Shown piece by piece: positions 579 through 4,651 of a stretch of DNA of 64,000 nucleotides. How positions within the stretch are numbered: the first letter of the stretch is position 1; each line of letters opens with the position of its first letter. The notes under the pieces were generated by a model that saw nothing but the letters and a program-made list of their open reading frames with translations, searched no databases and had not been told where the DNA came from. The translations under genes and the position numbers were made by a program. Origin of the DNA: an uncultured Alphaproteobacteria bacterium (GTDB lineage Bacteria > Pseudomonadota > Alphaproteobacteria > Rhizobiales > Methyloligellaceae); assembly GCA_963839245.1 (NCBI GenBank), contig CAWIUJ010000002.1, positions 125,795 to 189,794 of the forward strand. Reading direction: 5' to 3'.

Positions 579-2015
579 CTACCCCTCGCGGATGGTTGCG
601 AAAGCGATAAGTGCGCGGGCGCGCGCGGCGCCGTGCTCGACGATCGGCGGTGGGTAGCTCTTGCTGAGTGTCACGCTGGCCGCGCCGAGGGCAAGCTCAG
701 GCGCCTGCCAGGGCGCGTGGATATTGCGAGCGGACAGCCTGGCGAGCTCAGGCATCCATCGCCGCACATAGACGCCGTCGGGATCGAACTTCTGGCCCTG
801 AAGCACGGGATTGAAGATGCGGAAATAGGGCGTGGCATCGGTACCCGAGCCCGCGACCCACTGCCAGTTGGCCTGGTTATTGGCGAGGTCGGCGTCGACC
901 AGCGTATCGAGGAACCAATCGGCGCCGGTCTGCCATGGGATCAGCAGATGCTTGACCAGGAACGAGGCCACGATCATGCGCGCCCGGTTCGGCATGAAGC
1001 CCGTGTGCCATAGCTCGCGCATGGCGGCGTCGACGATCGGATAGCCGGTCCTTCCCTTCTGCCATGCCGTGAGGGCGGGCGCATCGTCGCGCCAGGGGAA
1101 GTTGGCGAATTCGGGCCTGAGAGGGTGCGAGATCATGGCCGGGAAATGCTTCAGCAGATGATAGGAGAAGTCGCGCCAGATCAGCTCGCGCAAATATGCC
1201 TCGGCTCCGCGCTCCGCCATTGCACCTCCGCGGGGGGCCGCGCCTGTCACGGCATGCCAGATTTGAGTCGGACTGATCTCGCCGAAGTGCAGATGCGGTG
1301 AGAGGCGCGAGGTGGCGTCGATGTCGAGCCGGCTACGGTCCTCCGCATAGCGAGCCAGATGCCGCTCGGTGAAGCTTGCGAGCCGCGTGAGCGCCGCGGC
1401 TTCTCCAGGCTGCCACGTCTCGCGCAAGCCTCCGGCCCAATCCGGCCTCGCCGGCAGCAGATCTAGCGAGGCAAGAGGATTGCTCTCGGCGTCCGCGCAG
1501 CGGATGAGCCTAGGAGCCGGAAGCGGCGCGCGGGGCGCACCCGCCGCAAGGCAGGCGCGCCAGAATGGCGTGAACATTCGATAGTGCTGACCGGCAGCGG
1601 TGCGGATCGCCTCGGGTTCGAACAGGAGCCGCCCGCCATAGGTGCGGAACGCCGCACTCTGAGCTTTGCAGAGCGCGGTGACGGAGCGCTCGAGCTCAGC
1701 CTCCCAGGGCTCGTAGCCCCGTGCCGCATGGATGGCGGAGGCGCCGGTCTCGGCCAGCAGTGCCTTGAGCACTCCCGGGGCGCTGCCTTTGTGCAAGCAA
1801 AGGCGCCCGCCTCTCTGACGGAGATCGGTATCGAGCGCGGCGAGGCTGCCATGGAGCCACCAGCGCGAGGCGCCACTTGTGCGCCAGCGGCCTGGCGTCA
1901 CATCGTCAAGGATGTAGAGCGGCAGGACCGGCGCGCCGGTTTCGACCGCCGCAGTCAGCGCAGGGTGATCGGCGAGCCGCAGATCATTGCGGAACCAGAC
2001 GATGATCGGCGCCAC
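579..2015 (-). CDS. phrB: Deoxyribodipyrimidine photolyase (class I CPD photolyase)
   Basis: 478 aa; WFRNDLRLADHPAL N-terminus, TSRLSPHLHFGEISP, WQKGRTGYPIVDAAMREL, NRARMIVASFL, YFRIFNP FAD-binding motifs. Confidence 0.95.
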   Translation of the reverse strand: MAPIIVWFRNDLRLADHPALTAAVETGAPVLPLYILDDVTPGRWRTSGASRWWLHGSLAALDTDLRQRGGRLCLHKGSAPGVLKALLAETGASAIHAARGYEPWEAELERSVTALCKAQSAAFRTYGGRLLFEPEAIRTAAGQHYRMFTPFWRACLAAGAPRAPLPAPRLIRCADAESNPLASLDLLPARPDWAGGLRETWQPGEAAALTRLASFTERHLARYAEDRSRLDIDATSRLSPHLHFGEISPTQIWHAVTGAAPRGGAMAERGAEAYLRELIWRDFSYHLLKHFPAMISHPLRPEFANFPWRDDAPALTAWQKGRTGYPIVDAAMRELWHTGFMPNRARMIVASFLVKHLLIPWQTGADWFLDTLVDADLANNQANWQWVAGSGTDATPYFRIFNPVLQGQKFDPDGVYVRRWMPELARLSARNIHAPWQAPELALGAASVTLSKSYPPPIVEHGAARARALIAFATIREG

Positions 2016-2042
2016 GGAAATCGCTTCCTACCCTGCCATCCT

Positions 2043-2573
2043 TCAGCCCTCTCGCGCGGTTGCTGCGAAGGCCGCCTCGTGAAGTTTTCGGGACTCTGCA
2101 CTGAAACAGCAGAACACGACGCGCTTGATAGACGGAACGTCGCCGAGCGTGGTGCCCTCGCTGCGGACAGCGACAAGCGCGGCGCGGTCCGGCGGAAAGC
2201 CGAAGGTGCCCGTGGAGATCGCAGGGAAGGCGATGGAGGCAAGCCCGGGCCCAGCGGCAAGGACAAGACTGGTGCGGTAGCAAGACGCGAGCAGCCGGTC
2301 CTCACCCCTGTCCCCACCGTCCCAAATCGGTCCAACCGCGTGGATGACGTAGCGGGCCGGCAGATCGAAGCCCGGTGTGATCTTCGCCTCGCCCGTGCCG
2401 CAGCCGCCGAGCTTGGCGCAAGCCTTCGCGAGCTCTGGGCCTGCGGCACGGTGGATCGCCCCGCACACGCCACCGCCAGGGGCGAGCATGGTGTTTGCTG
2501 CGTTGACGATAGCATCAACGTTGAGCTTGGTGATGTCGCCTTCGACGATATCGACGCGCGTCGCTACGCTCAC
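2043..2573 (-). CDS. Macrodomain protein (O-acetyl-ADP-ribose deacetylase, YmdB-like)
   Basis: GDITKLNVDAIVNAAN, GGGVCGAIHRAAG, VIHAVGP, SIAFPAISTGTFGFP motifs; probable GTG start at 2573 with GGAG upstream. Confidence 0.92.
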   Translation of the reverse strand: MSVATRVDIVEGDITKLNVDAIVNAANTMLAPGGGVCGAIHRAAGPELAKACAKLGGCGTGEAKITPGFDLPARYVIHAVGPIWDGGDRGEDRLLASCYRTSLVLAAGPGLASIAFPAISTGTFGFPPDRAALVAVRSEGTTLGDVPSIKRVVFCCFSAESRKLHEAAFAATAREG

Positions 2574-2666
2574 CTGCTCCAAGGTCAACACCCGGCAAAG
2601 GATAGCCCAAATGCAAATGGCCGGCTTGAAGGCCGGCCATGCCACTCAGTTGAGATGCGGGCCCGC

Positions 2667-3080
2667 TTAGGCTGCGTCGGCCGCGAAGCGCCGGAAATGA
2701 GCGGTGTTAAGATCGTCCTCGACATGGTCCCGATCCTCGACCGTCTCGGCCAGCAGGTGGATATGCACCTCATTGGCGCCGAGCTTGGCGCCCTCGTGGC
2801 GAAGATGGGCAAGATTGAGGGTAACGGCGTCGTCCTTGGTCTGGCCGAACAGGAGCGGCGTCCGCGTGCCGTCGTCATGGCGGCGGACCAGGATGTAATT
2901 GGCCCGGGGCAGTGCCGGGCAGCCGATCAGCGTGTAAACACTATGCAGATAACGACGGCCCGAGGCGCCGCGCCAATAATGGAATGCCTGCGCAAAAGAG
3001 GCCTCGGCGCAAACCAGCGCAGGCTCGTCGGCAGGGCCCCAAGCGGCGTTATCGGTCGCTTCTGTCTGGCGCATCCACAT
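2667..3080 (-). CDS. Hypothetical protein, possibly a degenerate GIY-YIG-like fold
   Basis: 137 aa ORF with coding-like codon usage; ANYILV...LLFGQT spacing resembles GIY-YIG strands (inference). Confidence 0.7.
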   Translation of the reverse strand: MWMRQTEATDNAAWGPADEPALVCAEASFAQAFHYWRGASGRRYLHSVYTLIGCPALPRANYILVRRHDDGTRTPLLFGQTKDDAVTLNLAHLRHEGAKLGANEVHIHLLAETVEDRDHVEDDLNTAHFRRFAADAA

Positions 3081-3164
3081 GGCTCTAATTCCGCTTTACC
3101 GGGAAATTACCCGTCAAATGGGTTGACTGATGACGTTTTCAAGTCAGGCTTCAGGCGAATCATG

Positions 3165-3179
3165 GAACAAAGCTAGAAC
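3165..3179 (-). promoter_or_regulatory. Alphaproteobacterial LexA (SOS) box GTTC-N7-GTTC
   Basis: Plus strand GAACAAAGCTAGAAC = minus strand GTTCTAGCTTTGTTC, exact consensus, about 85 bp upstream of the ORF starting at 3080. Confidence 0.75.
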
Positions 3180-3200
3180 ATCACCTTTGTCCGGGAGAAG

Positions 3201-3216
3201 TTAACAAAAGGTTAAC
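3201..3216. promoter_or_regulatory. CtrA-type box TTAA-N7-TTAAC
   Basis: TTAACAAAAGGTTAAC, exact match to the alphaproteobacterial CtrA consensus; overlaps the plsC stop codon, 22 bp from the LexA box. Confidence 0.6.
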
Positions 3217-3956
3217 GCCCCCTTCGGTGGATGGCCCGCCTCTGCAAGGAGGCGGTTCGAGGCGTCTTCGATCGCGCTCTCCAGGCGGTGCAGGAACTCG
3301 GCTTTGTCGAGACCGGGCGGAATGGGATCGAGGAATTCCACCACGATAGTGCCGGGGCGGCGAATGACGCTGCGCCTTGGCCAAAACAGGCCCGAATTGA
3401 GCGCCACCGGAACGCACGGGACGCCGAGGGCCGCATAGAGCAGCACCACGCCCGTCTTGTAGTCGGGCGGGGCGCCGGGCGCCCGCCTTGTGCCCTCGGG
3501 AAAGACGATGATCTCGCGTGCGTCCGCGATGCGCTTCTTCGCCTCGCGGAGCATGCGGCGGAGCGCGGTCGGCCCCTTGTCGCGGTCGACCGGGATCATC
3601 TCGAATTTGCGCGAGAACCAGCCGTGGAACGGGATCCAGAACAGCTCGCGCTTCATCAGCAGCGCCGGGTCCCGGAAGAGCGGTATCAGGGCAAAGGTCT
3701 CCCAAGCCGATTGATGCTTCGAGGCGACCAGGTAGGCACCGTCTGGCAGCTTGTCGAGCCCCCGGACCTCAAGCTTGGTGCCGACAATGACCCGCAACAG
3801 CCAGAGCTCGAATCGCGCATGCACGGCGAGTGCCGCCATGGCCCAGCGCCGCGGCGCGAACAGCAACGGGCTGCCGAGCACCACGAACAGCGTGGTGGTC
3901 ACATAGAAGAGAAGGTTGAAGAGAAGGGAGCGCGCCATATCTACGCCCGCCGTCAC
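3201..3956 (-). CDS. plsC: 1-acyl-sn-glycerol-3-phosphate acyltransferase
   Basis: KHQSAWET (HX4D-like) and VFPEGTR acyltransferase motifs; follows YdcF/ftsX as usual in Alphaproteobacteria. Confidence 0.9.
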   Translation of the reverse strand: MTAGVDMARSLLFNLLFYVTTTLFVVLGSPLLFAPRRWAMAALAVHARFELWLLRVIVGTKLEVRGLDKLPDGAYLVASKHQSAWETFALIPLFRDPALLMKRELFWIPFHGWFSRKFEMIPVDRDKGPTALRRMLREAKKRIADAREIIVFPEGTRRAPGAPPDYKTGVVLLYAALGVPCVPVALNSGLFWPRRSVIRRPGTIVVEFLDPIPPGLDKAEFLHRLESAIEDASNRLLAEAGHPPKGALTFC

Positions 3957-4651
3957 GGCTCGGAGGCATCCTCAACCGCAATCGTGGTTTTTCCAGACAG
4001 AATCATGCTCACGATTCGCGTGGTCCCGAGCCGACCCAGCGCCGGCAGATATTTCAGATATTCGGTCATCAACAGCTTAGTGGTGCCGGGATATACCCAC
4101 CACCGCTCAAGATGCACGTTATTGTCGATCACCGAATAGGGGATCAAGTCGACGCCCGGCATGACGCGGCCAAGCTCGGCGAGCGCGCGGGGCATGTGAT
4201 AGTTCGAGGTCACCACGATGATCGACTGATAGTGATGCTGCGCCACCCACTGGCTGGTCTCGGTGGCGTTGTCGATGGTGTTGCGCGCTTCCTTGTCGAT
4301 ATCGACGCAGCAGGCGAAGAGCTGGTCGCCTTGGCTCGCAAGTTCCTTCAGCGCCTCCGTCGAGGTGGTACGATTGACCCCGGTGATCAACAGCCGCTTC
4401 GCCTTCTGATGGGTGAGCAGCTTCATGGCCTCGTCGATGCGGGCCGGGCCGCCGGTCAAGACGGTAATACCGTCGGCCGTGTGCTCAGGCTCCGGCTGCT
4501 CGCGCGCGATGAAGCTGGTAAAGATCAGGAAGCCGATGGCGAGGAGAGCGAACAGCAGCAGCAGCGAATCGAAGATGAGCTGTAGCCCGCCCACGAAGAC
4601 GCGAAATCGGCTCGGCGATTTCGGCTCTTCCTCGCTCACGTCTCGCTCCAA
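3953..4651 (-). CDS. YdcF/DUF218 family protein
   Basis: ADGITVLTGG, RLLITGV, ARNTIDNA, IVVTSNYHMPRA motifs; N-terminal TM segment. Confidence 0.88.
   Translation of the reverse strand: MERDVSEEEPKSPSRFRVFVGGLQLIFDSLLLLFALLAIGFLIFTSFIAREQPEPEHTADGITVLTGGPARIDEAMKLLTHQKAKRLLITGVNRTTSTEALKELASQGDQLFACCVDIDKEARNTIDNATETSQWVAQHHYQSIIVVTSNYHMPRALAELGRVMPGVDLIPYSVIDNNVHLERWWVYPGTTKLLMTEYLKYLPALGRLGTTRIVSMILSGKTTIAVEDASEP

Follow-up and report, generated by a model that had tools for sequence, protein, structure and literature searches.

In Escherichia coli the UvrC homolog Cho is a LexA-regulated GIY-YIG nuclease with a canonical domain that is readily detected by Pfam. The LexA motif of Caulobacter is GTTCN7GTTC (da Rocha et al. 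2008, as cited in PMC12700426), and BapE (Bos et al. 2012, cited in PMC12700426), an endonuclease that Caulobacter induces in the SOS response, is a small, lineage-restricted and LexA-controlled protein acting on DNA. SOS regulons beyond those of E. coli, Bacillus and Caulobacter still hold conserved genes of unknown function. Here we describe what is very probably one of them, the gene for a 137-aa protein within a stretch of 64,000 nucleotides (the window) from an uncultured alphaproteobacterium of the Methyloligellaceae (GenBank assembly GCA_963839245.1, contig CAWIUJ010000002.1, positions 125,795 to 189,794). The genome is Methyloceanibacter-like, as homologs with 79% identity carry the name Methyloceanibacter. 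As in the SOS promoters outlined for Caulobacter and other Alphaproteobacteria, a predicted GTTC-N7-GTTC operator overlaps the core promoter of a putative damage-response gene, but the 137-aa gene belongs to no described SOS family and its control region adds an RpoH1-type promoter and a CtrA-type box. It also differs from the known alphaproteobacterial SOS genes in being almost confined to Hyphomicrobiales, an order of methylotrophs, nitrifier associates and plant symbionts, where the family is present in more than half of the sampled genomes (171 of 301, from 70 of 124 genera, mostly in single copy) versus 3 of 301 genomes sampled across the class. Because the family is essentially absent outside Hyphomicrobiales, orthology with BapE is unlikely, even though the general description of BapE would fit. 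Cho shares with the gene the SOS control and, possibly, the type of fold, but it is about twice as long, whereas the 137-aa family fails the Pfam model, carries an extra N-terminal hairpin and conserves other residues. In the direction of the gene, the control region and the gene itself are composed as follows:

3201-3216, on both strands: CtrA-type box TTAACAAAAGGTTAAC, TTAA-N7-TTAAC, a rare motif
3200-3195, minus strand: predicted -35 of promoter P1, CTTCTC, degenerate in this strain and CTTGAC in most relatives
3165-3179, minus strand: predicted LexA (SOS) operator GTTCTAGCTTTGTTC, an exact GTTC-N7-GTTC direct repeat
3175-3170, minus strand: likely -10 of P1, TAGCTT, within the LexA operator
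3157-3161: GANTC site of the CcrM methylation type, lying between LexA box and P2 and found in about 17 of 24 aligned orthologs as counted by eye
3116-3143, minus strand: candidate promoter P2 of the RpoH1/sigma-32 type, CTTGAA (3143-3138)-N15-CCCATTT (3122-3116)
2667-3080, minus strand: gene of the 137-aa protein, an unnamed family without family match, its ATG-TGG start conserved in aligned orthologs

The predicted LexA box is located 85 nt upstream of the ATG. The bare motif is not above chance, with one occurrence in the window against 1.69 expected and 63 sites in the genome against about 85 expected by composition, and the significance of the box therefore derives from its position and its conservation and not from rarity. 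For this comparison, named loci were collected with a degenerate DNA pattern for NEVH(V/I)HLLA, resulting in 41 Methyloligellaceae loci (Methyloceanibacter and Methyloligella) and 79 named loci in all when other families are included. The box is exact in 19 of 19 orthologs of the genus and in 24 of 24 when aligned, where GTTC....TTTGTTC never changes but the flanks and the initial four bases of the spacer do. It is likewise exact in all 41 of the named Methyloceanibacter and Methyloligella loci and in 19 of 20 distant homologs (33–46% identity) that belong to other families of Hyphomicrobiales, the remaining one being a single base off; the chance of an exact box in an upstream region of about 340 nt is about 0.01. 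In the same genome exact GAAC-N7-GAAC boxes precede lexA by 33 nt and recA by 141 nt, and the motif is also present upstream of a dnaE-type polymerase gene and a radical SAM gene of the PA0069 type. Control of the 137-aa gene by LexA is thus highly likely and, since the conservation of the box in different genera and families is far above chance level, the gene has very probably long belonged to the LexA regulon in Hyphomicrobiales without having been described. A preliminary description of this stretch, made from its letters alone, had already placed a LexA and a CtrA motif upstream of the gene and proposed its product as an undescribed SOS factor; both motifs were found again at exactly the same positions, and the conservation of the LexA box bears the proposal out.

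Read in the direction of the gene, one or more GTTAAC elements are followed by the -35, a spacer of 17–18 nt, the -10 inside the LexA box and, after another 21 nt, the CTTGAA element. The predicted -10 of P1 within the operator is the classic layout for repression by occlusion, and the element downstream of it, which the preliminary description had overlooked while recognizing the two boxes, is conserved as well. The P2 motif, about 36 nt upstream of the start codon and 21 nt downstream of the LexA box, is present in 39 of the 41 loci, CTTGAA and CC(C/T)AT.T being invariant or nearly so in the alignment of 24 orthologs, and it reads CTTGAA-N15-CCTAT(T/C)T in several relatives. The RpoH1 promoter of Sinorhizobium meliloti is given as CTTGAA-N15-16-CCTATAT (Barnett et al. 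2012, quoted in PMC4843759), and P2 resembles it closely but stands, in contrast to the promoters quoted there, in tandem with a promoter that LexA would repress. Related CTTG-N-CCTAT elements lie upstream of dnaK, groES and ftsH in the same genome. Since a strict genome-wide scan for the P2 pattern returned the 137-aa gene as sole match, the assignment relies on the published consensus together with these related elements. The LexA box lies at about -64 relative to P2, so that LexA probably has no control over it, and we read P2 as a candidate heat-shock-type promoter beyond the reach of LexA. If so, the tandem of a LexA-repressed and an RpoH-type promoter would be a concrete case of SOS genes being read by alternative sigma factors, a question that has been raised for Caulobacter (PMC12700426).

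The protein itself has no match in Pfam, NCBIfam, PHROGs, PADLOC or the sequences of the PDB, neither as single sequence nor as profile, and genome annotation cannot name the family because there is no Pfam or NCBIfam model for it. It comprises 645 clusters at 50% identity. Its conserved residues are W36, G38, S40, G41, Y44, H46, C54, P55, G71, N89, R94, G101, A102, E104, H106, H108 and D123, among which W36, G38, S40, G41, Y44, H46, C54, P55, E104, H106 and D123 are nearly invariant across 81 members, with W36, H46, C54, E104, H106 and D123 as the most strongly conserved. An AlphaFold2 (AF2) model with a pLDDT of 86, a pTM of 0.75 and a disordered N-terminus predicts strands at 33–37, 43–50, 61–67 and 73–80, a helix at 86–100, a strand at 104–108 and a helix at 114–136, and this order of four strands, helix, strand and helix returned in the AF2 model of a distant member. 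The residues H46, C54, E104, H106, H108 and D123 may form a remodelled, possibly metal-binding cluster. A HIT-like reading of the E-V-H-V-H-L-L segment, a Ser-His-Asp triad (S40/H106/D123) and an OB or His-Me finger fold were considered and dropped as neither fold nor profile comparison supported them, and S40 is moreover replaced by Gly in one homolog. A search of a viral structure library with the AF2 model gave nothing significant. Many distant members (for example P0144, P0155 and P0177, and the proteins of loci L028, L033, L034 and L038) carry a motif M-x-A-x-I-I-x-L-A-E-(Y/F/A)-(R/K)-A-x-R in front of the folded domain that is absent from the window protein and may be a docking or degradation signal.

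In the preliminary description the protein was said to be reminiscent of GIY-YIG strands, and this likeness receives some weak support. The elements from residue 61 onwards (beta 61–67, beta 73–80, alpha 86–100, beta 104–108, alpha 114–136) follow the beta-beta-alpha-beta-alpha order, and the PDB entry that Foldseek ranks first for the AF2 model is 2lwf, the GIY-YIG endonuclease domain at the N-terminus of AtGRXS16 from Arabidopsis (Liu et al. 2013), with a probability of 0.96, TM-scores of 0.46/0.52 and an rmsd of 3.1 over 89 columns, but at an E-value of 0.36 and with 11% identity. The window protein possesses Y62, G79, R94 and E121. One member, P0265, shows a Pfam GIY-YIG match at its YIG-Arg segment (E 0.008, 16.8 bits) that stays below the cut-off of 22.6 bits, and together with P0254 and P0270 it carries YIGQ(T/S)-x5-R-x(2-4)-H and, 12 residues behind the conserved Glu, an Asn (E-x11-N). 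A profile of these three members aligns collinearly with GIY-YIG (P 5e-4, probability 31%). Several results weigh against the assignment. The match to 2lwf was not recovered with the AF2 model of the distant member, whose PDB matches were noise, and hhalign of the whole family against GIY-YIG gave a probability of 1.3%. The window protein and 61 members are without a Pfam GIY-YIG match at E<=1, a scan of the whole genome with PF01541 misses the gene, and a search with P0265 returned family members alone and no bona fide GIY-YIG protein. Among the 81 members the canonical catalytic Glu (E121) is kept in only 35, the position of the GIY tyrosine (62) is occupied by Y in 55 and by F in 15, R94 is found in 69, the Asn of the catalytic set is confined to the three-member subclade, and the invariant residues fall outside the GIY-YIG signature. 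The likeness is backed by three weak signals that agree, the fold match of the window protein, the Pfam match of P0265 and the profile of the subclade, but it does not reach formal thresholds. Derivation of the modelled fold from GIY-YIG, with a remodelled conserved site, is in our view slightly favoured, nuclease activity is rather unlikely, and on present evidence the family is not to be filed as a GIY-YIG member.

A different genomic context of the family is seen outside the Methyloligellaceae. The same-strand upstream neighbour is NrdJ (Ribonuc_red_lgC and TSCPD domains), a class II ribonucleotide reductase (RNR), in 21 of 51 sampled loci from several families and in 32 of the 79 named loci, mostly from Hyphomicrobium, Filomicrobium and other Hyphomicrobiaceae. 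In only two of these 32 loci does the nrdJ-adjacent family gene have its own LexA box. This does not result from a differing LexA because lexA of those Hyphomicrobiaceae genomes carries the same motif. Instead, an exact GAAC-N7-GAAC is found 55–155 nt upstream of nrdJ itself in 11 of 17 Hyphomicrobiaceae loci in which the 5' end of nrdJ is covered (L127, L135, L139, L147, L148, L157, L162, L172, L174, L178 and L184), which suggests that the synthesis of deoxyribonucleoside triphosphates (dNTP) is under predicted SOS control and part of the SOS response in Hyphomicrobiaceae. Judged by the predicted boxes, there are thus three arrangements that tie the family gene to LexA: its own box beside plsC, its own box after nrdJ or other genes, and a position downstream of a LexA-boxed nrdJ. 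That the predicted LexA control persists through at least three genomic arrangements argues for a genuine role in the survival of DNA damage. The preliminary description, correct in regarding the gene as an SOS gene, had missed this link of the family to nrdJ. Upstream of family genes, DnaA-box-like sequences (one mismatch at most) occur about ten times as often as expected (14 versus 1.4), and in L037, L039 and L047 pairs of TGTGGATAA and TGTGGAAAA, 23–24 nt apart, are present between nrdJ and the family gene, about 90–180 nt upstream of the W-x-G codons of the latter. In the window genome, an nrdJ-like region at C15:422690-424432 matches full-length NrdJ in pieces in the frames 2, 1, 3 and 2 and no long open reading frame (ORF) was called there, so that it may be a pseudogene or the result of assembly frameshifts. 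A second RNR-like gene is located at C11:161873-164161.

Taken as a whole, our explanation, for which we claim somewhat better than even confidence, is that of an SOS gene with two promoters and a diverged GIY-YIG product. LexA would bind the operator covering the -10 and repress P1, DNA damage would lead to RecA-driven cleavage of LexA and release P1, with a GTTAAC or CtrA-type element abutting the -35 of P1. RpoH would bind and drive P2 independently of LexA during heat or protein-folding stress. The product would be a diverged relative of the GIY-YIG fold, with a beta-beta-alpha-beta-alpha core, an extra N-terminal beta-hairpin and probably a bound metal, acting on DNA or nucleotides after damage, and the macrodomain and photolyase genes that follow in this genome may receive read-through transcription. 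Points against this explanation, besides those named for the fold, are the degenerate -35 of P1 in this strain (CTTCTC), the distance of P2 from the LexA box and the fact that sequences from within one genus are not independent observations. A bolder version, which we consider improbable, would make the family an unrecognised SOS effector of the whole order, derived from GIY-YIG with the nuclease site lost and a new His/Cys/Glu/Asp metal centre gained, receiving LexA, RpoH and CtrA/DnaA inputs and working with class II RNR to couple damage to precursor supply or replication restart.

The two boxes of the control region have to be judged differently. That the LexA-type box is a functionless chance match would agree with the frequency of the bare motif, which equals the expectation from composition, but the box is invariant in 24 aligned orthologs despite diverged flanks and recurs in the independent sets (41 of 41, 19 of 20) across differing genomic contexts, and we regard this reading as hardly credible. 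The case of the CtrA-type box, which the preliminary description had taken as evidence of cell-cycle gating, is less clear. CtrA-activated promoters of Caulobacter have a CtrA box abutting or overlapping the -35, and the box in the window abuts the -35 position of P1. The motif is rare, with 0.04 occurrences expected in the window and 13 TTAA-N7-TTAA sites in the 3.57 Mb of the genome, 10 of them outside called genes and some upstream of popZ-like and rpoD genes. On the other hand, the 3' end of the upstream PlsC-like gene, with its final codons and its stop codon (3201-3203), runs into the box, which had been overlooked before, and the element might equally be bound by another factor or be left over from the plsC end, leaving the gene without cell-cycle gating. 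In line with this, the full box is kept in 12 of 19 genus orthologs and in 16 of the 41 relatives, and the 25 lacking it retain a single GTTAACC half-site; moreover, intergenic DNA is generally enriched in A-T-rich motifs. Yet the GTTAA half-site is present in 38 of 41 although the stop codon of plsC shifts relative to the motif between species, so that conservation of the motif is not simply that of a stop codon, and the box abuts or overlaps the -35 also in the nearest relatives. We consider control of the 137-aa gene by binding of CtrA a tentative proposal that is rather less probable than its opposite, and that the element serves another factor or marks the plsC end is about as likely as not. 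Outside the window, in the dnaG-rpoD region of C12 (C12:144266 and C12:146667), rpoD is preceded at a distance of 134 nt by a TTAA-N7-TTAA box and dnaG at 72 nt by an exact LexA-type box.

The gene is part of a run of five consecutive genes on the minus strand, and the neighbours on both sides were assigned as follows:

3953-4651, minus strand: DUF218 protein
3201-3956, minus strand: PlsC-like acyltransferase, stop codon 3201-3203, the conserved upstream neighbour in Methyloligellaceae
2617-2640, minus strand: terminator-like hairpin with a 9-bp stem and 7 G-C pairs, followed by TTGCATTTGG
2043-2573, minus strand: YmdB-type macrodomain gene (O-acetyl-ADP-ribose deacetylase model) according to Pfam and NCBIfam
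579-2015, minus strand: class I-type cyclobutane pyrimidine dimer (CPD) photolyase (PF00875 E 2.4e-49, PF03441 E 3.1e-86)

The order DUF218-plsC-family gene is kept throughout the genus, and the region 3' of the family gene differs from species to species. Among cultured strains, M. methanicus R-67174 and M. superfactus R-67175 (Methyloceanibacter) share the layout of the window. The macrodomain is identified by PF01661 (E 1.7e-43) and by NF001664 with 204.7 bits, above the cut-off of 200; its ORF spans 2043-2645 with a likely GTG start at 2573 behind GGAG, a start being possible up to 2591. The photolyase stays below the NCBIfam equivalog cut-offs (353.9 bits versus 506). With a gap of 27 nt between them, the photolyase is probably co-transcribed with the macrodomain gene.

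The preliminary description had combined the 137-aa gene, the macrodomain and the photolyase into one SOS- and CtrA-controlled repair operon in which the macrodomain reverses ADP-ribosylation arising from DNA damage. All three genes are real ORFs, co-oriented and closely spaced, and a GGAG ribosome-binding site precedes the macrodomain gene of the window, with no separate promoter evident there. Termination at the hairpin may be partial because its T-tract is interrupted, and in L002, the closest relative with the same layout, the macrodomain frame overlaps the 3' end of the family gene without any hairpin. However, the LexA box stays with the 137-aa gene in 41 of 41 related loci, whereas the macrodomain follows in 6 and the photolyase in 2 of them, and in the window the terminator-like hairpin (2640-2617, with its T-rich tail; not conserved in relatives) stands 27 nt after the stop codon of the gene. 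Furthermore, in L003, L005 and L008 an element TTGATC-N17-TCCAAT-N6-ATG precedes the start codon of the macrodomain gene and stays with it even with a cytochrome-like gene inserted after the family gene, which suggests that in these loci the macrodomain gene is served by a separate promoter, possibly a leaderless one. The macrodomain belongs to the YmdB type, PADLOC gave no defence or DarG-type match for it, and nothing was found that links it to damage-related ADP-ribosylation. The three-gene operon is therefore unlikely in our judgement, and the real feature is the single gene at 2667-3080, with macrodomain and photolyase as lineage-specific neighbours; partial read-through into them in this sub-lineage is conceivable from the sequence, although we lean slightly against it. 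A further alternative concerns the function of the protein, which might be no nuclease but a damage-induced factor in replication or dNTP supply that could, for example, modulate NrdJ or act as its partner. The frequent position of nrdJ upstream of the gene, the LexA box that nrdJ carries in Hyphomicrobiaceae, the DnaA-box-like sequences with their pairs in three loci and the poor conservation of the canonical GIY-YIG Glu compared with the invariant His/Glu/Asp cluster would all be consistent with such a role. Synteny alone, however, shows no functional link, the gene in Methyloligellaceae, including the window genome, adjoins plsC and not nrdJ, the nrdJ-like region of the window genome matches only in pieces of differing frames, and the family has no similarity to known RNR accessory proteins in Pfam, NCBIfam and profile searches. 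We consider this role improbable and prefer the diverged GIY-YIG relative that acts on DNA or nucleotides after damage. As an observation on the 3' side of the family gene, the loci L007 and L012, from two species, carry an identical hairpin, TCATTCCCGCGAAAGCGGGAATCC, about 20 nt after its stop codon that looks REP-like.

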